Below are positions 1-46,906 of a DNA stretch of 46,906 nucleotides, piece by piece. The DNA is from a virus, in UHGV virus genome UHGV-1362522, one strand, 5' to 3'. The stretch's first letter is position 1. Each line of letters opens with the position of its first letter. The translations under genes and the position numbers were made by a program. A model generated the notes under the pieces. That model was not told the DNA's origin, did not search any database, and worked only from the letters and a program-made list of their open reading frames with translations.

Positions 1-405
1 CAATTTGCTTCATCCGTAAATATTCCTCTTAACTCATTGCTCGGTAGTCGCAGCGGCGTACTTGCGTCCGCAAATGATGAGCAGTCACTTGCCATGATGG
101 CAATGCAGCGTCGTGACGGGTGGCTCGATTATCTTATTTCTGTGTTCGTCGAGCGTTTAATTAAATTCGGCATCATCGACAAAGCGCCAGAGGCCGGATA
201 TTACTGCAAGTGGAATGACTTGCTGGAGCCTACGCAGAACGACAAGGCAGAATTGATTGTCAAGCTGGCGCAAGCTGCGCAGAGCGCTGCGAATGCAGGT
301 TTGGACCCAATCCTGACGGCAGATGAAATTCGCTCATTCCTTGGCCTTGATCCAATAAAATTACCAGGCGGCATGAGTGAGGATGACCCATCACAAGAGG
401 AGTGA
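1..405 (+). CDS. portal protein, C-terminal part (5' end lies at 45917..46906 if the genome is circular/permuted)
   Basis: Frame 1 is open from nt 1 with no start codon. It continues the frame of the ORF that ends exactly at 46906. Acidic C-terminus (SEDDPSQEE). Stop TGA at 403-405. Confidence 0.55.
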
Positions 406-7852: not shown

Positions 7853-9253
7853 ATGATTGTCAAAATTGGCGACAAGTGGGTCGTTAAATCTAAGGATGGC
7901 TCGCACCAGTTTGGCGAGTACGACACCGAAGAGGCGGCGAAAAAGCGCCTTGCTGAGGTGGAAGCATTCAAGCACATGAATAATAAATTACAGGTTAACA
8001 TCCTGTACACCATCAACTCAGCCAGCAACATCGGTGAAAAAATCATTGATGGCGAACCGCACTATGTCATCAAGAATGTCGTGCCGGTGGTGGATGATAT
8101 TGTCATGAACGGCGGCCTGTACCCTGGCGATGAGATTAAAAAATCATTCCATGGTCTTGATGGAAAACCGGCACCATATGACCACCCGAAGATTGACGGC
8201 AAATACGTATCGGCCAACATGACGCGGGCCGCCAATCAGTTCGGCGTTGGTGCATGGATTGAGAACTCATCCCATGACGGCAGTAAGGTGCTGGTAGACC
8301 TTTATATTAATAAGGTTGTAGCCGAGCGATCTGATAAGGGCCGGGAGTTGCTTTCGAGAATTGATGGCCTCAAAGTTAACAGCGCTGACGCTGAGCCTGT
8401 TCAGGTGTCTACCGGCCTGTTACTCAACCGTGAGCAGGCATCAGGAACTTCCAAGGGTAAAAAATATTCCTGGATTGCCCGGAATATGGAGTGGGACCAC
8501 CTCGCCATTCTTCCGCCTGGTATTCCCGGTGCTGGCGGCCCTGCTGATGGTGTCGGTATATTTGCTGCTAACGGAGAAGACATTGAGCGCGTTGTAGTTA
8601 ACCTTGAGGAATCGGCAATGCCAGACGAAAGCGCAAACAAAATCAAATGGTGGCAGCGTGCAATCAATCGCCTTACTGGCAATCAATTGTCATTCACCGA
8701 TATTACCGCGCAGCTCCACAATATCATCAAGGCCGAGATGTCAGACGACTCATGGCCTTATATCGTCGCCGTTTATGATAATTACTTTGGCGTTGAGATT
8801 GACGGCACCATTTATATGCAGTCCTACATCGTCCGTGAGGATATGGTAGAATTAGTCGGTGAACGGGTTAAGGCTGTTTATAAGACAGAGCTTGAACCGG
8901 TAAAAACAACTCAAGGGGAAATCTCAATGACTAACGAGGAATTACAGGCTGTATTAGCCGATGCCCTCAAACCGGTTCAGGAATCGTTGACCGCAGTCAA
9001 CCAGAAACTGGCCGATGTGGAGGCGCAAAACAAAACCCTACGCGACCAGCTGCAAGCCAATGCAGCACAGGAAGAAACCGCAATGCGCGCCGCCATTATG
9101 GCTGAGCTGAAGTTGCCGGAATCTGCTGTTAATGCGCTGACTGGCGAAGCACTGCGTGAAACCTATGCACTCACCAGTAAAGCGGCTCCGATTTCCGGTG
9201 GGTTCCAGCCGAACCGTGCCGAAGAAGATTTTGATATGGAGGCACCTGAATAA
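7853..9253 (+). CDS. prohead maturation protease fused to a scaffolding-like coiled-coil domain
   Basis: The N-terminal 200 aa fit the DUF2213/XkdF-like prohead protease region (from memory). The C-terminal 120 aa are Ala/Gln/Glu-rich coiled coil. SD GGAGAAAGG. Confidence 0.45.
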
Positions 9254-9725: not shown

Positions 9726-10799
9726 ATGGAAAAGATTATTTTTACCAAAGACTTGGTAGCCAACTCCGCAGTGGTGGCTGACCAGTGGAAACATCTCACC
9801 ATCGACCGTAAAGTGTTCTGCAATGCAGAAGCTGAACTGGCGAAAACCTACGGTGTTAACGCCACCGCACTGGTAACGAAAGATTACTGGCGCGACGTGG
9901 ATAACGTCACCACCCGCGTTTTCCGCAACGAAGCTGGTCAGGATATGATGGCTGACCTGATGGGTATCGCGGCAAACATCAACATCGGTAAGACCGTGGC
10001 AATTAGTCGCATTGCTTCCGATGCTGGTAAGGTCGTCCGCACCCTGTCTGGTCAGGAACCGGAAGATTTGGATAAAACTCGCTACGATTACACTGGCGAT
10101 GTGATTCCAATCTTTAAGACTGGATACAGCCGCGAATGGCGCGAACTGCTGGGTATGCAATCTGAAGGTTTTGACCCGCTGCTGGATGACCAGGCTAACG
10201 TCACCTTCAACCTGCGTTCCGACATGGCGCAGTACCTGCTGACCGGCGACCAGACTCTGAACGTGAACGGCGTGTACACTGGTTACGGTATCACCAACCA
10301 CCCGAACACCATTCAGGTTAACCTGAGCACCGATTCCCCCGGCCTGGATATCGACCTGCAAACCGCAACGCCAGATAAAATCGTGACCTTCTTCAATCAG
10401 GATTTCCAGGCTATTCTGGATGCGCAGAACGTATTTGAGCAGGTGACTCTGTGGGTTTCCCCGGCAGTGCGCCGCAGCTTCATGCGTCCGTATTCTGATG
10501 CGGCCGGTTTCAAAGGCGGCACTGTTGAGCAGTACATCACGCAGTTCGGCAATGGTCGCATCGGCAAGATTGGCACCAACTTCCTGCTGACTGGCAACCA
10601 TTTCGTTGGTTACGTTCGCAACGACATGTACATCCGTCCGCGTGTTGCTCAACCTGTTTCCACCTACGCAGCAGCCCGTACCAACCCGCACGATAACTTT
10701 AACTTCCTCGTGTGGTCAGCTTTTGGCCTGCAAATCCGTAAGGATTTCAATGGTCGAAGCAAAGTTTTCAACGGCTACGGCACGCAAACCGCGCTGTAA
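9726..10799 (+). CDS. major capsid protein
   Basis: 357 aa. Followed by a strong terminator. Position after the protease-scaffold gene. Confidence 0.6.
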   Translation: MEKIIFTKDLVANSAVVADQWKHLTIDRKVFCNAEAELAKTYGVNATALVTKDYWRDVDNVTTRVFRNEAGQDMMADLMGIAANINIGKTVAISRIASDAGKVVRTLSGQEPEDLDKTRYDYTGDVIPIFKTGYSREWRELLGMQSEGFDPLLDDQANVTFNLRSDMAQYLLTGDQTLNVNGVYTGYGITNHPNTIQVNLSTDSPGLDIDLQTATPDKIVTFFNQDFQAILDAQNVFEQVTLWVSPAVRRSFMRPYSDAAGFKGGTVEQYITQFGNGRIGKIGTNFLLTGNHFVGYVRNDMYIRPRVAQPVSTYAAARTNPHDNFNFLVWSAFGLQIRKDFNGRSKVFNGYGTQTAL

Positions 10800-11913: not shown

Positions 11914-12110
11914 TACCAACTCTCCACCACATTTGCGCATTCATCATAAAATAAGAAATGCCTTGTTTTTTCTTCGTAACGCTTCATTTCAAATGCGATT
12001 ATGTCCTCCTGATAGTGAATTTTCTCCACCTGGCGAGCCACGCCGTCTCGCATTAGGATGTGATCGCCTTCTTTTATGTTTTTTGCAACAGTGCCAATTG
12101 TAATCATCAC
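11913..12110 (-). CDS. hypothetical protein (65 aa)
   Basis: SD GGAGAA. Coupled to the ParB-like gene stop. Confidence 0.35.
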   Translation of the reverse strand: MMITIGTVAKNIKEGDHILMRDGVARQVEKIHYQEDIIAFEMKRYEEKTRHFLFYDECANVVESW

Positions 12111-12922
12111 AGCTTCTCCAGAATCGCCAGCACTTCACTCAACTCAGCGGAAGGAAGACGCAAAAACTCCTCGGTCTCCTGTGCGACATGACCCTCAGCG
12201 ACAACCATATGATCTGCTTCTTTCAGCAACTGAATCAGGCGGTCAATCGGCTTAACTTTTTTGGCCTTGAGCGTTTTAGCCGTCACCTTATCCTTGCCCT
12301 GCGCTTTCGCTTCCTCAACGGCAGCATCAATAACGTTAACTGCATCATCTCCATGCTCGCGCGCCACTGCAACAGCGTTGGCATAGCTGATTTGGCCTGC
12401 GTTGATACGTTGCTTGATGGCATCAGGTACGTCACCAAGTGACAGGTGCATCTGCACATCAGAAACTGAGCGACCGACCTTCTTGGCGATTTCTTCATTC
12501 GTCCACCCGAACCCTTTCAGGCGCACATACGCCTTTGCACGCTCAAGCGGGTCGAGTTGCTTACCCTGACTGGATGACACCATGAAGGCGATTTTATCCG
12601 CTTCATCGCCGGTGAAGTCTTTGCACTCAATGCGCGCAATTGGTACGCCGCGCTCAATAGCTCGCAGCGCGCCAAGATAACGATGCTGGCCGTCAAGAAT
12701 CTTAATGCGCTTTCCGGCAGCATCAGGAATAACAGTTAACGCCGGGATTGGCTGTCCTGATTCCCAGCACTGCGCGAAGTATTCAACGTGCTGCTCATCG
12801 GCTTCGCGGATGTTGTACCCCGGCTCAAGATAAAGCTGGTCGACAGGAACCTGATAACCTTTGTTGACCACGATTCCGCCGCGAGTTTCTTTGTCTGAGT
12901 AAATTTTTCCGAGAGATGTCAT
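12107..12922 (-). CDS. ParB-like nuclease domain (ParB/Srx) protein
   Basis: KILDGQHRYLGALRAI matches the ParB N-terminal motif. C-terminal helical DNA-binding-like region. Confidence 0.55.
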   Translation of the reverse strand: MTSLGKIYSDKETRGGIVVNKGYQVPVDQLYLEPGYNIREADEQHVEYFAQCWESGQPIPALTVIPDAAGKRIKILDGQHRYLGALRAIERGVPIARIECKDFTGDEADKIAFMVSSSQGKQLDPLERAKAYVRLKGFGWTNEEIAKKVGRSVSDVQMHLSLGDVPDAIKQRINAGQISYANAVAVAREHGDDAVNVIDAAVEEAKAQGKDKVTAKTLKAKKVKPIDRLIQLLKEADHMVVAEGHVAQETEEFLRLPSAELSEVLAILEKL

Positions 12923-12929
12923 CTTTTCC

Positions 12930-13046
12930 TCACTTTGATAAACAGATTGCGCTGGCAATGGCGAATCCGATAACGATTAATGCCAGCTTTATTTTGAACT
13001 TATCCCACGCTTTCAGGTCTTCTTTGCGGATTTCGTGGCGGATCAT
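12930..13046 (-). CDS. 38-aa membrane peptide
   Basis: SD GGAGAA. ATGA-coupled. Sequence IKLALIVIGFAIASAICL. Confidence 0.25.
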   Translation of the reverse strand: MIRHEIRKEDLKAWDKFKIKLALIVIGFAIASAICLSK

Positions 13047-41629: not shown

Positions 41630-41664
41630 TTCACTTCAATGATGCCCTGATGAGGAATCTATAT

Positions 41665-44184
41665 ATGGCACGCAAAAAACTCTCAGCACCAGCAATTGAA
41701 AAACTCGAAGAGATTATTGGCGATGGCGTGATTGATGCGCCTGAATCTGCGGTGTTCGGTGTTGTTAATACAGATAAGCAGATTGTTCGCAAACTAAAAA
41801 TGACGCAAAGCGGAGTTGATGACGTTAGCGACTCTGATATTGGCGTTGATCACCTGATGCCAGAAAAGCTGGAAAAGCTACTTTACCCCAAGCGTAATAA
41901 GATTGTGTTTGGCGGGCGCGGATGCTTAGCCATCGGCACGATGGTGAGGATGTTTGATGGTAGCCTAAAACGCGTAGAGGATATCGTTGTTGGCGATAAG
42001 GTTATGGGTCCAGACAGTAAACCACGAAATGTTTTAAACATCTGTCGGGGGTTTGATGACATGTATACGGTTCATCAAAAATATGCTGATGACTACACTG
42101 TCAACTCAAGTCACATACTGTCATTACGAAAGATTCCATCTGCTATCAGTGACGAGACAAAAACACCGGATGGTAAAAGAATTTATCGTTATTACCCGAA
42201 TGAACCTGAAATACTGAATATTGGTGTTTCAGAATATTTGTCGCGCGCAACTTCCAAAAAGTTCCGCCATGTCTTTAAAGGGTGGCGAACAGGATGGGAT
42301 TTTAATGACCAAAGCGTCCCAGTTGACCCGTACTTTCTTGGTTTATGGTTAGGTGATGGTTCATCTCGTGGTGTTGAAGTGTGCACGCCTGATCCAGAGA
42401 TAGTTGACTACATTCACAACGTGGCAAGCCAATACGGGATGCAGGTAAAGGTTCGCGACGATGATAGATGCCCTGTCTATGCGATAACTAATGGTCGAGC
42501 TGCTGGCATGGGAAAGAACACCAACCCGTTACTAACTAAAATGCAGCAGCTTGGGGTGATTAATAATAAACACATACCTGACTGCTATATCAAAAACAGC
42601 AGAGAGGTAAGACTTCAGATTCTGGCTGGGCTATTGGATACTGATTCGCATTATGACCAGAAAAAGAAAAGCTATTCTTTCACATCAATAAATAAAGAAA
42701 TGGCCTTCTCTTTGATGGATGTGGCAAGATCGCTTGGCTTCAAGTCAAGCATAATCAAAAAGACTGATGTCACCTTTGAATATAAAGGTGAGAAAAGAAT
42801 ATACGAAAAGGACGTATGGGAGGTGTTCGTTAGTGGTGACCTTCATACAATCCCATGCCGAGTAAAAAGGAAGATAGCAGAGAAAACCAAGTCAACCCGT
42901 GGAAAGATGACTGAGGTGTCATTGTCTTATGTCGGGCATGGTGAATACGCTGGGTTCACTATTGATGGCGATCATCTTTTCCTGCTTGCTGATGGCACGG
43001 TTACACACAACAGCGGAAAAACAAGGACAGTAACAACAATACTTACGGAGCGTGCACGCTTTAAGCCTGACAGGATAGCTTGTTTTCGTGAGATTCAGCA
43101 GTCTATTGAGGATAGTTCATATCAGGAGCTGAAAGACGAGATTGACAGGAAGGGCGAGACAAAAGAGTTTCGCGTCATCAACAACGAAATAACACACAAG
43201 GTAACGAAAGCAAAGTTCCGCTTTAAAGGCCTGTATCGCAACCAGACGACCGTAAAAGGCTTCGCTGGCATTACAGTAGCTTGGGTCGAGGAGGCGGAAA
43301 ACGTCAGCCAGACAAGCTGGGAAATCCTCACCCCAACAGTCCGCGCTGAAGGGTCAGAGATATGGGTGACTTTCAACCCAAATAAAGAGCATGACCCGAC
43401 GTGGAAAATATGGGTTGAGCCTTTTTATAATAAATTGCGCGAAAATGGCGGCATCTATGAGGATGATGAAAACCTGATTATCGAGTGTAATTACTCAGAC
43501 AATCCGTGGTTCTGGGATACTCCGCTCCCAAGCCAAATGCGGCGCATGAAAGAAACCGACTTCGACCGCTATCAATGGGTGTGGGGCGGTCGCTTTAACA
43601 AGCGTAATGATGAGCAGGTATTTGGCGGTAAGTGGCGCGTTGCTGATTTCGAGGTTAAGCCGGAATGGCATGGGCCTTACTTTGGCATCGACTTTGGATT
43701 CTCGCAGGACGCAACGGCGATGGTTGAGGTTTACATTGAGAAACTTCCTGATGACCGCCGCAACCTTTACGTCGCGCGCGAATACGGCCGTGTAGGCCTT
43801 GAGATTACCGACACACCTACAGCGATGGAGCAATCATTCCCACTCTCCAGGAAGGCAAGATGGTATGGGGACTGCTCTCGGCCAGAAACAATCAGTCACA
43901 TCAAACGCGCAGGATTTGATATCCATCCATGCAATAAGTGGCCCGGGAGCGTGGAGGAGGGTGTAACCTGGCTCAGGGGTTGCGACAGCATCATCATTCA
44001 TGACCGCTGCACACAGACTCAGGAAGAGTTCACTATGTACAGTTACAAGGTGGACAAGCTGACGGGTAACGTGCTCACAAATATTGTGGATGCGTGGAAC
44101 CACTTCATTGACGCAATCAGATATGCATGCAACGATCACATCGTACAGCGTGGCTCTGGATGGATTAGAAGGAGCAGGAGATAA
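41665..44184 (+). CDS. terL: terminase large subunit interrupted by an in-frame intein
   Basis: Exteins join to VFGGRG|SGKTRTV, a canonical Walker A. ATPase and RNaseH-like nuclease regions follow. SD AGGAA 8 nt upstream of ATG 41665. Confidence 0.85.
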   Translation: MARKKLSAPAIEKLEEIIGDGVIDAPESAVFGVVNTDKQIVRKLKMTQSGVDDVSDSDIGVDHLMPEKLEKLLYPKRNKIVFGGRGCLAIGTMVRMFDGSLKRVEDIVVGDKVMGPDSKPRNVLNICRGFDDMYTVHQKYADDYTVNSSHILSLRKIPSAISDETKTPDGKRIYRYYPNEPEILNIGVSEYLSRATSKKFRHVFKGWRTGWDFNDQSVPVDPYFLGLWLGDGSSRGVEVCTPDPEIVDYIHNVASQYGMQVKVRDDDRCPVYAITNGRAAGMGKNTNPLLTKMQQLGVINNKHIPDCYIKNSREVRLQILAGLLDTDSHYDQKKKSYSFTSINKEMAFSLMDVARSLGFKSSIIKKTDVTFEYKGEKRIYEKDVWEVFVSGDLHTIPCRVKRKIAEKTKSTRGKMTEVSLSYVGHGEYAGFTIDGDHLFLLADGTVTHNSGKTRTVTTILTERARFKPDRIACFREIQQSIEDSSYQELKDEIDRKGETKEFRVINNEITHKVTKAKFRFKGLYRNQTTVKGFAGITVAWVEEAENVSQTSWEILTPTVRAEGSEIWVTFNPNKEHDPTWKIWVEPFYNKLRENGGIYEDDENLIIECNYSDNPWFWDTPLPSQMRRMKETDFDRYQWVWGGRFNKRNDEQVFGGKWRVADFEVKPEWHGPYFGIDFGFSQDATAMVEVYIEKLPDDRRNLYVAREYGRVGLEITDTPTAMEQSFPLSRKARWYGDCSRPETISHIKRAGFDIHPCNKWPGSVEEGVTWLRGCDSIIIHDRCTQTQEEFTMYSYKVDKLTGNVLTNIVDAWNHFIDAIRYACNDHIVQRGSGWIRRSRR
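41923..43011 (+). mobile_element. intein (363 aa) with double-LAGLIDADG homing endonuclease, inserted in the TerL P-loop
   Basis: N-terminal CLAIGTMV (Hint block A, Cys1). LGLWLGDGSS and ILAGLLDTDSH are LAGLIDADG motifs. C-terminal TVTHN followed by Ser+1. Confidence 0.8.
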
Positions 44185-44204
44185 GAAAAAGCCCCTGCCG
44201 GGGT

Positions 44205-44495
44205 CTATTTATAAAGCCAGCAATGAATCCCCGCGTTGCGCATGGCGGCATAAATCACGTCATCAGACACGACCGCCATTGCCACTCTGTCTGCATCAAT
44301 CTGCTGATGCGAAGCCATGATGTCATCATAGAAAACATCGTTAGCATGCAGCCACTCATACGCATGCTTTGCCCTCATGATAAGCACATCATGCCCGGCA
44401 GAGTAGAGCGACTTAGCCAGCGCAACGTTGCCAGAAATAGCATTTCCTTCCGCATCACGCAGCACGCCATCAAGCTCGAAAATGACACATTTCAT
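44205..44495 (-). CDS. HAD-like small hydrolase (nucleotidase-like), possibly degenerate
   Basis: MKCVIFELDGVL resembles HAD motif I with Glu in place of the first Asp. VVSDDV is motif IV-like. SD GGAGAAA. Confidence 0.35.
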   Translation of the reverse strand: MKCVIFELDGVLRDAEGNAISGNVALAKSLYSAGHDVLIMRAKHAYEWLHANDVFYDDIMASHQQIDADRVAMAVVSDDVIYAAMRNAGIHCWLYK

Positions 44496-44521
44496 AAGAT
44501 TTCTCCGAGAGGTTTCATTTT

Positions 44522-44550
44522 AATCTACGCCATGCTAGAATCTACGTCAA
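44522..44550 (-). promoter_or_regulatory. leftward promoter TTGACG-N17-TAGATT built from two motif copies
   Basis: ATCTACGCCA at 44523-44532 and ATCTACGTCA at 44540-44549. On the minus strand this reads TTGACGTAGATTCTAGCATGGCGTAGATT. Confidence 0.4.
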
Positions 44551-44584
44551 GGCGCATTGACATAACTACATCACCAGGGGCATC

Positions 44585-44824
44585 ATGAAGGCATACTCAT
44601 CTTTTTCGTGGGAGCAGAAGGAAAAAATATACTCACTCGCAAGAGCTGGTGTGTCGGATGAGGCACTGTGCGAAAGGTACGATGTGGATGAGGCTATTCT
44701 TCTGCGCATGTATGATGAAGTGCTGTGTGAGTTGCAGCGGCGTCGTGGTTATAGTGGCCTGAAGACGATTAATGATTTCTTTCGGAATGTTGAGCTAAAT
44801 AACGATGAGGGTGGTGATTTATGA
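44585..44824 (+). CDS. hypothetical protein (79 aa)
   Basis: No motif recognised. Precedes the HslV-like gene. Confidence 0.35.
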   Translation: MKAYSSFSWEQKEKIYSLARAGVSDEALCERYDVDEAILLRMYDEVLCELQRRRGYSGLKTINDFFRNVELNNDEGGDL

Positions 44825-44855
44825 AGGGTATCGTATTTATGATTGAGGTGATGAA

Positions 44856-45344
44856 ATGACAACAATTGCATGGGATGGGGTTACGATTGCGCACGATAGT
44901 CAGTCCACTGCCGGAAGCCTGATTATGGCTAACCAGCAGAAGTCTTTTGTACTTGATGAAAATGATAAGTTTTTTATTTGCGGTGAGCTGGCTGTATTGA
45001 TTGTTGGTAGTGGTGCTGCTGGCGATGAACGATATGCGAAGCAGTTCATGCGTCGGGCCGTTGATGACATTATGGAGATGCCAGAAGAGCTGGACTTTAC
45101 TCAGTGGGTATTCACAGATAAAGGGAACTGTTTTGCCATCCAGAAGATTCCTGGAAATAAATATCCAGCGGTTTACGCAGTCACTCCCCCGCTTGCTGCT
45201 GGTTGTGGGCGAGACTTTGCTATGACCGCAATGTACTTGGGGCAGACTGCTGAACAGGCGGTAATTACTGCGTCAGTTCTGGATGCTTTCACTGACTCAA
45301 ATGTTAAAACATATAAATTTAAACACGGCGAGGGGGTGAAATGA
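44856..45344 (+). CDS. HslV / proteasome beta-subunit-like Ntn hydrolase (162 aa)
   Basis: MTTIAW with Thr2 as the putative nucleophile. GVTIAHDSQSTAG, GSGAAGD and PLAAGCG parallel the HslV TTIV..IAGDGQAT..GGTADA..AIGSGG blocks. Confidence 0.55.
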   Translation: MTTIAWDGVTIAHDSQSTAGSLIMANQQKSFVLDENDKFFICGELAVLIVGSGAAGDERYAKQFMRRAVDDIMEMPEELDFTQWVFTDKGNCFAIQKIPGNKYPAVYAVTPPLAAGCGRDFAMTAMYLGQTAEQAVITASVLDAFTDSNVKTYKFKHGEGVK

Positions 45345-45448
45345 TTATTGATGGTGAGTATTTTCACGATGTTAAATTGTTCCTAAGCGACAGCGGCGCG
45401 CTGCATTGTTCGCAGCAAAATGAGGGACCGGAAGAGATGACAAGTTAA
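45341..45448 (+). CDS. 35-aa peptide, ATGA-coupled to the HslV-like gene
   Basis: SD GAGGGGGTG. Confidence 0.2.
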   Translation: MIIDGEYFHDVKLFLSDSGALHCSQQNEGPEEMTS

Positions 45449-45518
45449 TCATCGACAAACACCAGGCCGCGCAGCTTATCGAAGTCCTGCAACGCTGGGT
45501 TGATGACGAGGTGAAGTG

Positions 45519-45701
45519 ATGTCGTATTTCTTCCTGATATTCGTAATCACAAGCAATACGTCCAATATGCAGGTGGTGCCGATGCAAAGCATGGAGCAGC
45601 GCCGGGCGGCCGTTACGGCAATGAAAATCGCTGAGGAAAGACGGACGTGGCGTGATGTAAGTCCAAATGTTAACAATTTGCAATGTGTTGAGGTGAAGTG
45701 A
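45519..45701 (+). CDS. small protein (60 aa) with hydrophobic N-terminus
   Basis: GAGGTGAAGTGATG junction upstream. Ends ...VEVK* on the same cassette. Confidence 0.3.
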   Translation: MSYFFLIFVITSNTSNMQVVPMQSMEQRRAAVTAMKIAEERRTWRDVSPNVNNLQCVEVK

Positions 45702-45862
45702 TGCAACTATTCTGGTCGTTCTGGGTGCCATTTAATTTTCTCTTCTGGTGGTTCGCTGCTCTAAAGGTCAATAACCCTGGGTGGAAGCACGTCGTAGCGG
45801 GAACTGTTTTTGCATTTGTCACTGGGATGGTTCCGTTCCTGATATACCAGGCGATAAAATAA
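45701..45862 (+). CDS. 53-aa membrane peptide
   Basis: GAGGTGAAGTGATG start cassette. Sequence MQLFWSFWVPFNFLFWWFAALK... Confidence 0.3.
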   Translation: MQLFWSFWVPFNFLFWWFAALKVNNPGWKHVVAGTVFAFVTGMVPFLIYQAIK

Positions 45863-45880
45863 CACCTACACCATGCTATA

Positions 45881-45905
45881 ATCCCATCCAGCGATGGGAT
45901 TTTTT
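45881..45905 (+). terminator. rho-independent terminator before the portal gene
   Basis: ATCCCATC-CAGC-GATGGGAT followed by TTTTT. Confidence 0.6.
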
Positions 45906-45916
45906 ATGGTGACGAA

Positions 45917-46906
45917 ATGTCAAAGTTAGAGGCGGTAAACGCCTATATTCAGCAGCGAGTGGCGAACAATAACAGGCTCATCGAGCGGCAGCGCCGGGAG
46001 TTTGGCGGGAAGAACCTTGACCAAAAGCACGACAGGCTTTGGTCGGAGTGTGGTTACAGCCAGGAGATTACAGCAGCAGATTTCCGCTTTGCCTACGAGC
46101 GATATCCGTTAGCTACAGCGGCGGTTAACCTTGTGCTCAATAAGTCGTGGCAAGGTATGCCCACCGTTCTTGAGCACAATGCTGATGACGAGGCAACATC
46201 CAAATGGGAAGTTTCGGTAAACAAAATCCTCAAGAAGTCAGCTCCATTTATCAAAGATGCTGATAAGCGCAACCTGATCAACCGCTACTCAGGCTTGCTG
46301 CTTCAGATAAATGATGGCGGCCAATGGAGTGATCCTGTTAATGTGACCAAAACAGGCAGAATTAAAGATGCGGCAATCGTTAGGCTAATCCCATGCTGGG
46401 AGGAGCAGTTGCGCGTTTCTCAGTGGCAAAATGACGAGTCAAAGGAGGACTACGGACAGCCTTTGATGTTCGAGTACCAGGAAAGCGCCGTTGATGATTT
46501 TGATAACGATGGTAAGCCAAAGCGATCGGTTAAAATCCACCCTGACCGCATTATTACTCTCGCAGAGGGTAGTTTCGATGGGAGCATATTCTCTGGCATT
46601 CCTCTGCTTCGAGCTGGATTTAACGCTTTAATAGACTGCGCCAAAATTACCGGAAGTTCAGCGGAAGGGCTCCTCAAAAACTCATCACGTCAATTATCTA
46701 TATCCTTCAACAAAGATAATGTATCTGTGCAATCCCTTGCGCAGCAAATGGCCGTTACGGTAGAGGAGCTGCCAGATATCCTTAATGAAGATATAGAAAG
46801 AATAAATAGCGGGATTGACGCTGCGATGTTTGGGTTTGGCAATGATGTGGATGTGCTGTCAGTAACCATGAACGACCCTGAACCGTTCATGTACGTAGCG
46901 GCCAGC
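45917..46906 (+). CDS. portal protein, N-terminal part (open at the window end; continues at 1..405 if circular)
   Basis: ATG 45917. 330 codons run exactly to the last base of the window with no stop. The window-start frame continues it. Confidence 0.6.

Follow-up and report, generated by a model that had tools for sequence, protein, structure and literature searches.

Among the N-terminal nucleophile (Ntn) hydrolases of the proteasome-beta/HslV superfamily, the PPH family comprises proteins of about 140 residues that are placed in group I alongside HslV and BPH, have no propeptide, lack helix H2 and the C-terminal S12/H5 elements, and occur in Caudovirales and prophages (Fuchs et al., 2021; PMC8665760). 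The viral genome UHGV-1362522, analyzed over its full length of 46,906 nucleotides (hereafter the window), carries on its plus strand a gene at 44856-45344 whose 162-aa product is a member of this family, the assignment being made by the features in the published description of PPH (representative, WP_042125023.1). All compared features fit: the product is a compact subunit without a propeptide and without C-terminal S12/H5, it lacks helix H2, and its family is carried by tailed phages and prophages. An earlier reading of the raw sequence (the sequence-only reading) had identified the product as an HslV- or proteasome-beta-like Ntn hydrolase with no propeptide, and this identification is correct, being upheld by the family profile, residue conservation, the structural model and the alignments. 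The novelty that it implied is not upheld, because PPH had been published in 2021 (PMC8665760) and KpV2811 gp67, the orthologue from a Klebsiella phage, which is 97.5% identical to the present protein, is already labelled 'peptidase HslV family' in RefSeq; the gene is thus already known, both as a kind and as a member. The literature on phage HslV-like and PPH proteins yielded annotation-level mentions only. One paper assigns Erwinia phage RAY gp116, which may or may not be akin to the present protein, to the 'HslVU protease family' and reports its localisation in the phage nucleus.

The open reading frame (ORF) begins with MTTIAW (residues 1-6), as had been noted, and a Shine-Dalgarno sequence lies close upstream. 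An MTT start is found in 111 of 120 homologues; therefore the family has no propeptide, and the threonine would become N-terminal after removal of the methionine. Four of the nine remaining homologues (P0026, P0031, P0080 and P0104) have TTIA after a short N-terminal extension, which suggests that their starts are miscalled. Threonine is a permissive second residue for methionine aminopeptidase. When BPH was expressed in E. coli, removal of the methionine and exposure of Thr1 were seen by mass spectrometry (PMC5777263).

The HslV-like blocks to which the sequence-only reading had pointed are all present, namely GVTIAHDSQSTAG at residues 8-20, Lys29, GSGAAGD at 51-57 and PLAAGCG at 112-118, and the lysine and glycine blocks correspond to the catalytic Lys33, the oxyanion Gly47 and the Gly-Ser-Gly loop at 128-130. 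Alignments to proteasome beta5 and E. coli HslV (the HslV reference sequence used for hhalign is identical to PDB 1e94 at 174 of 175 positions) equate T2 with Thr1, D14 with Asp17, K29 with Lys33, G53 with Gly47, G116-C117-G118 with Gly128-Ser129-Gly130, D143 with Asp166 and T146 with Ser169. Conservation was counted in an alignment of 111 homologues that were picked for an MT start and have a mean column identity of 20%. In this set M1, T2, D14, K29, G53, G116 and G118 are invariant (M1 and T2 partly by selection of the set), D143 is found in 106 sequences, and the residue-146 column is Thr or Ser in 109. The residue-117 column contains Ser in 99 sequences, Cys in 8 and Thr in 4; as judged from this alignment, the proteasome-type catalytic set is conserved, and the Cys117 of the present clade, in place of the Ser129 equivalent, is its sole deviation at a catalytic position. 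Because the catalytic positions are invariant despite so low a mean identity, the active site is most likely under purifying selection, and the protein is probably active.

Profiles were needed to recognize the family, because single-sequence searches were weak or empty: the protein alone matched the Pfam family Proteasome (PF00227) at 14.3 bits (E 0.032), below the gathering cutoff of 22.4; phmmer found no match to it among PDB sequences; and NCBIfam, the curated models of which include HslV, returned no family at E<=10. The 162-aa protein is matched by PHROG 1040, 'peptidase HslV family', at E 8.8e-28, and Pfam Proteasome is matched individually by 44 of the 111 homologues at E<=0.01. The profile of the 111 homologues aligns with proteasome beta8/beta5 at E 8e-13 to 1e-10, Thr1 falling on Thr1, and with HslV at E about 9e-11, family residue 2 falling on the mature Thr1. 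The similarity is far beyond chance, as the PHROG match and the number of homologues indicate. Relatives are encoded in 120 phage records found by tblastn (phages of Klebsiella, Salmonella, Erwinia, Xanthomonas, Escherichia and Proteus) and in 118 stretches of IMG/VR, and an exhaustive search with the family profile reached 4150 clusters (50% identity) at E<=1e-3, including 440 at E<=1e-10. The median length of the homologues is 149 aa (range 132-197), and ten longer ones (208-311 aa) contain no fused domain recognisable by Pfam.

An AlphaFold2 model built on the 111-sequence alignment has a predicted local distance difference test (pLDDT) score of 92.2 and a predicted template modelling (pTM) score of 0.88; an earlier AlphaFold model, built on 11 sequences, had a pLDDT of 67 and template modelling (TM) scores of only about 0.45 to the proteasome and HslV. 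The predicted structure shows a proteasome-like alpha-beta-beta-alpha Ntn fold in which helix H1 is retained, a single helix (58-67) lies between strands S4 and S5, and the C-terminal end consists of H4 followed by one strand at 150-154; model and alignments together show the protein to be without helix H2. In a Foldseek search of the PDB, ranks 1-9 were all HslV chains (from S. aureus, T. maritima, T. brucei, E. coli and B. anthracis; TM 0.58-0.66), followed by archaeal beta, yeast beta5, BPH (rank 22) and Anbu (rank 40), and all 50 listed PDB matches were HslV, proteasome subunits, BPH or Anbu. The model also matches 41 viral structure clusters. The profile search and structure prediction that the sequence-only reading had proposed as checks therefore both lead to a related Ntn fold, with Thr2 and the lysine and glycine blocks conserved.

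By genome comparison, the gene is accessory and horizontally exchanged. The window, a siphophage genome of about 47 kb, has Roufvirus pIS4-A and the Klebsiella phages YX3973 and KpV2811 among its relatives, and it contains at this locus the following features.

41650-44184, plus strand: terL, encoding an 844-aa large terminase.
44191-44204: terminator-like hairpin between terL and the next gene.
44205-44495, minus strand: truncated gene resembling polynucleotide kinase (PNK-like), 96 aa, with a partial match to phrog_415 (polynucleotide-kinase/HAD-like; profile positions 22-164 of 218).
44585-44824, plus strand: 79-aa ORF of PHROG 13301 (unknown function), directly 5' of the PPH gene.
44825-45449, plus strand: indel cassette of about 625 bp, delimited by blastn breakpoints, holding the PPH gene and the 5' part of the downstream small ORF.
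44845-44851, plus strand: Shine-Dalgarno sequence GAGGTGA, read directly from the sequence, 4 nt 5' of the ATG.
44856-45344, plus strand: gene for the PPH-family proteasome-like Ntn (Thr1) hydrolase, 162 aa plus stop codon.
45341-45448, plus strand: 35-aa ORF with an ATGA overlap with the PPH stop codon, a frameshift-truncated form of a 53-70-aa ORF.
45516-45701, plus strand: 60/61-aa ORF of PHROG 26819 (unknown function), also present in relatives without the PPH gene.
45698-45862, plus strand: 53/54-aa strongly hydrophobic ORF, the start of which overlaps the previous stop (TGATG).
45880-45901, plus strand: terminator-like hairpin of 9 base pairs followed by TTTTAT, separating the small-gene cluster from the portal start.
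45917-46906 joined to 1-405, plus strand: portal gene, with its start codon at 45917.

The cassette is present here and in phages of the KpV2811/YX3973 type, and its place is taken by other small ORFs in Aeromonas phage pIS4-A and Klebsiella phage ZCKP8; in blastn comparisons, homology to pIS4-A ends sharply at 44824 and homology to ZCKP8 at 44866, and it resumes at 45450 in both. The conclusion that the gene is exchanged horizontally follows from this absence in the same slot, from its carriage at >=80% identity by only 14 of the 62 phage records matching the region, and from the contrast between the near identity of the PPH protein to KpV2811 gp67 and the 65% identity of the adjacent portal protein. 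For the latter comparison the two parts of the portal gene were joined into a 464-aa protein, residues 1-455 of which align to 1-457 of the 482-aa KpV2811 portal. Because the portal gene continues in frame at position 1, the window is a circular permutation of a complete genome opened inside this gene.

The sequence-only reading had placed the gene between terL and the portal gene and had coupled it to three downstream micro-ORFs. It does lie between these two genes, but it does not adjoin terL, since the PNK-like gene and the 79-aa ORF intervene; the coupling holds only in part: the first micro-ORF has an ATGA overlap with the PPH stop and the second and third share a TGATG overlap, but the first is a frameshifted remnant. 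The full 53-70-aa ORF (MIIE...DKHQAAQLIEVLQRWVDGEE) is intact in most related phages, and the conserved C-terminal coding part of the DKHQAAQLIEVLQRWVDGEE type persists out of frame at about 45449-45521, ending at the TGATG junction. The frameshift could mean that the ORF is a true pseudogene, but it could also be an error of sequencing or mark a site of recoding. The 79-aa ORF is conserved in relatives with or without the PPH gene, and the 53/54-aa hydrophobic ORF probably encodes a small membrane protein. The 96-aa PNK-like ORF is kept at this position in all relatives examined and is transcribed opposite to the packaging genes. In the gap at 44496-44584 a promoter scan found two sigma70-like sites against 2.9 expected by chance, the plus-strand site overlapping the start of the 79-aa ORF; a promoter is not claimed there, the count being no more than chance. 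PADLOC found no defence-system match for the PPH gene and five neighbours.

Several other genes of the window have features of their own. A 363-aa intein (41923-43011), with a Hint domain and a LAGLIDADG homing endonuclease, sits inside the Walker A loop of the terminase (GGRG / C...HN / SGKT); an intein-less terL of about 480 aa occurs in ZCKP8 and several IMG/VR loci, and the long form in KpV2811 and pIS4-A. Between the portal gene and a Mu-F-like head-morphogenesis gene (1402-2349) lies a 230-aa ORF (713-1405) in which Cys/His motifs recur (HGDF...CPSC and HGDF...CNKC). Since an HNH endonuclease is annotated at the corresponding place in ZCKP8, the ORF may have been inserted as a mobile endonuclease gene. 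Amid structural genes, the minus strand at 12107-12958 encodes a ParB-like partition protein (PHROG 1033, E 8e-87).

The surroundings of the gene in other phages were surveyed at 80 IMG/VR loci, in which ORFs were called and clustered to give 22 PPH lineages at 55% identity; the loci were found solely by the patterns MTTIAWD or D[FI]AMTAM, taken from the 11-sequence alignment, and are biased to Proteobacterial phages. In at least 11 of the 22 lineages terL or portal lies within five genes of the PPH gene, co-oriented in all but lineage 8. The usual order in packaging-linked lineages is PPH, a terS-like gene, terL and portal, and one P22-like lineage has a terS of 162 aa, a terL of about 498 aa, a portal of 722 aa and a scaffold of 303 aa; in lineage L080 the PPH gene directly follows a portal/adaptor-like gene. 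Elsewhere it stands after DNA polymerase and primase genes or near an HNH endonuclease gene, in Jerseyvirus it precedes holin genes, and in Xanthomonas phage OP1 it lies among small, mostly unannotated genes. The IMG/VR loci revealed no partner gene that was conserved among them. The enrichment near packaging genes looks real and is hard to interpret, as the lineages are not independent and the search patterns bias the sample. Moreover, the junction of the lysis and terminase modules is a well-known hot spot for insertions. We read the enrichment as placement in the late operon and not as a role in head assembly, which is disfavoured because close relatives share the head module and yet lack the gene.

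Three IMG/VR loci (L023:6001-7209, L062:5264-6537 and L061:3219-4492) contain two tandem PPH-like paralogues with C-terminal extensions. The first two come from jumbo-phage contigs of 227-233 kb and the third from a 22-kb contig with genes identical to those of L062. The second copy of L023 starts with MSV and has lost the equivalents of Gly47, Ser129 and Asp166; its residues suggest a partner subunit without activity, which would recall on a small scale the proteasome alpha/beta arrangement or inactive beta subunits.

Taken together, these observations make it reasonably probable, in our judgment, that the compact PPH-family Ntn hydrolase encoded by the gene is a self-assembling Thr1 protease that acts without canonical HslU docking, and that as an accessory gene it modulates fitness. 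Host methionine aminopeptidase would remove Met1, and the free alpha-amine and hydroxyl of the exposed Thr1 would act with Lys29 and Asp14 as a catalytic triad, Gly53 providing the oxyanion hole, to cleave peptide bonds in the manner of the proteasome. The protein would probably self-assemble, although all models are of the monomer, and late in infection it would probably attack unfolded proteins or particular proteins of the host or the phage. It would probably act without canonical HslU docking, because the surface with which HslV binds and responds to HslU is deleted. Its role would be to modulate fitness and not to build the virion.

Several points weigh against this interpretation. BPH binds epoxomicin and has no established substrate, and its authors raise the possibility of a missing cofactor (PMC5777263); the related connectase is a ligase, not a protease (PMC8665760). 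Because of these two precedents we can only infer that the PPH protein is a protease, and by analogy with them it would be unsafe to read function from this fold alone. In addition, no assay of any PPH member was found in the literature, the cysteine at the Ser129 position (8 of the 111 homologues) could alter activity, and the proximity to packaging genes in half or more of the lineages could indicate a link to packaging or head assembly as opposed to a mere insertion hot spot.

The connectase precedent leads directly to the first alternative, that the protein is a non-proteolytic Ntn enzyme that uses Thr1 chemistry for ligation or transpeptidation of one target, as connectase does, or for hydrolysis of a non-protein amide. 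Connectase demonstrates that a proteasome-like fold can be a specific ligase, and the loss of H2 alters the surface that closes the chamber in ring-forming relatives. PPH is, however, placed in group I with HslV and BPH, apart from connectase (PMC8665760), helix H1, which is missing in connectase, is kept here, and the DSQSTAG motif near the substrate-binding strand closely resembles DSRATAG of proteasome beta5. We therefore regard a non-proteolytic function as unlikely.

The sequence-only reading had suggested that the protein might pair with the host ATPase HslU, and the corresponding alternative is that of a surrogate HslV, the rings of which dock on HslU and redirect or sequester HslUV so that host or defence proteins are degraded or phage proteins are spared. 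Consistent with this idea, the top structural matches in the PDB are to HslV chains and public annotation already reads 'HslV family'. The hosts of the carrier phages in the tblastn set are all Proteobacteria, which generally encode HslU. No AAA+ unfoldase of the phage itself was found among the neighbours of the gene or among the ten large ORFs of the window that were scanned, the remaining ORFs not having been scanned. The interface argues in the other direction. In the hhalign alignment with E. coli HslV, about 15 gap columns stand opposite HslV 63-93 and most of that segment is deleted. This H2 segment includes Ala79 and Lys80, which line the pocket for the C-terminal tail of HslU (PMC6429459), and the Arg86/Arg89/Lys90 pore cluster, mutation of which cripples HslV and which is remodelled by HslU binding (PMC5777263). 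HslV Lys28 is aligned to Ala25, in a variable column of the family, no NCBIfam HslV model is matched, and in sequence the family is at least as near to proteasome beta5 as to HslV. There is also a precedent in BPH, a descendant of HslV that has lost its dependence on HslU. Judged from the alignment and the model, pairing with host HslU is doubtful, and we give the surrogate hypothesis a low probability. Orthology with HslV was likewise rejected, the H2/HslU-interface region being missing and the curated HslV model unmatched. The Asp166 position also sets the two apart, with the proteasome-type Asp in this family and Cys159 in E. coli HslV.

A second head-maturation or packaging-associated protease, processing portal, scaffold or capsid proteins, was also among the earlier suggestions. 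The position of the gene between terL and portal, the recurrence of this neighbourhood in other lineages and the order in L080 are points in favour of such a role. The closest relatives have the same head genes without it, however, and elsewhere it stands beside lysis, small unannotated or replication genes, as in Jerseyvirus, in Xanthomonas phage OP1 and in the lineages with polymerase and primase genes. Its absence from the same slot in pIS4-A and ZCKP8 marks the gene as an accessory cassette rather than one for a maturation protease. Moreover, neither Pfam nor PHROGs gave a match to prohead-protease families (HK97 gp4/S78, ClpP/S14 and S49 types), and a gene already occupies the scaffold/protease position at 7853-9253. 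The sequence-only reading had held that the PPH protein may not be the head protease, and this is probably right, given the accessory status of the gene and its varying context among phage groups; on the same two grounds a head-maturation protease was rejected, and we consider it very improbable.

The gene at 7853-9253 had been taken for a conventional prohead protease. It belongs to PHROG 760, of unknown function, and matches head-maturation-protease PHROGs only weakly (3e-5 and 2.5e-4). Its score for Pfam DUF2213, 21.5 bits, is borderline (the cutoff is 22), and its C-terminal part resembles a coiled coil. The major capsid gene (9726-10799, DUF6260) follows two genes further downstream; the product of 7853-9253 is plausibly, but not established to be, a protease-scaffold fusion.

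That the protein is a catalytically inert remnant, or a purely structural or decoy protein, is likewise very improbable: the cysteine at the Ser129 equivalent, the frameshift in the coupled downstream ORF, a hint of local decay, and the clear degeneration of some jumbo-phage paralogues would suit it, but the other catalytic positions are all intact and invariant in a family of such low mean identity, and many independent phage genomes carry the ORF at 85-98% identity.

Returning to the preferred interpretation of an HslU-independent Thr1 protease, a more specific form of it may be put forward as a speculation: a late-expressed, unfoldase-independent Thr protease cassette, exchanged horizontally in order to destroy a specific host factor, with an active/inactive duplication in jumbo phages. 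Such a factor might, for instance, belong to a host defence triggered by the terminase, portal or capsid proteins. If true, this would explain the frequent placement of PPH genes at the head of the packaging operon, and the active/inactive subunit pair of the jumbo phages would be a miniature parallel to proteasome alpha/beta evolution; we hold the proposal as a whole to be rather unlikely.

Phage-encoded relatives of the proteasome are widespread, as the numbers of sequence clusters (4150) and viral structure clusters (41) given above indicate. The activity of PPH proteins, their targets, their need for an ATPase and their assembly without H2 would show how phages manipulate the proteomes of their hosts or their own, and how far the proteasome fold can be pared down. 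The element at the present locus is of a kind already known, but it offers a clean example that lends itself to study, an optional cassette of about 0.6 kb in a Klebsiella phage that has natural relatives without the gene.

Among the known systems, the 20S subunits beta5/beta8 give the best profile matches (E 8e-13), and DSxxTAG, GxAAD, GSG and D..(S/T)G align, including Asp166. Unlike the phage protein, these subunits have propeptides, H2 and C-terminal elements, need alpha rings, and work inside a four-ring particle. HslV (ClpQ) is the best match among solved structures (TM about 0.65) and shares the exposed MTT/TT N-terminal threonine without a long propeptide, and its Asp17, Lys33 and Gly-Ser-Gly align; the phage protein differs in having no H2, and hence neither the arginine/lysine pore cluster nor the Ala79/Lys80 pocket, and in having no hslU gene beside it.

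BPH (PDB 5OVS/5OVT), a proteasome homologue first found in Betaproteobacteria, is a group I descendant of the HslV lineage that also has no propeptide and no known unfoldase partner; its HslU-interface residues are unconserved, and its proteasome-like active site forms an epoxomicin adduct. In contrast to the phage protein it is longer (183 residues in the matched 5OVT chain), retains H2 as well as H1 and possesses a long acidic pore loop. Its gene lies on the chromosome, linked to stress-response operons, and not in phages, and it ranks only 22nd among the fold matches. From PPH as described, the protein differs in its length (162 aa against about 140 aa), in small insertions around residues 30-44 and 98-112, and in the cysteine at the Ser129 position. 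It shares with that family the compact single domain without a propeptide, the Thr1/Asp17/Lys33 triad plus Gly47, the lack of H2 and of S12/H5, and the occurrence in tailed phages and prophages of Proteobacteria.

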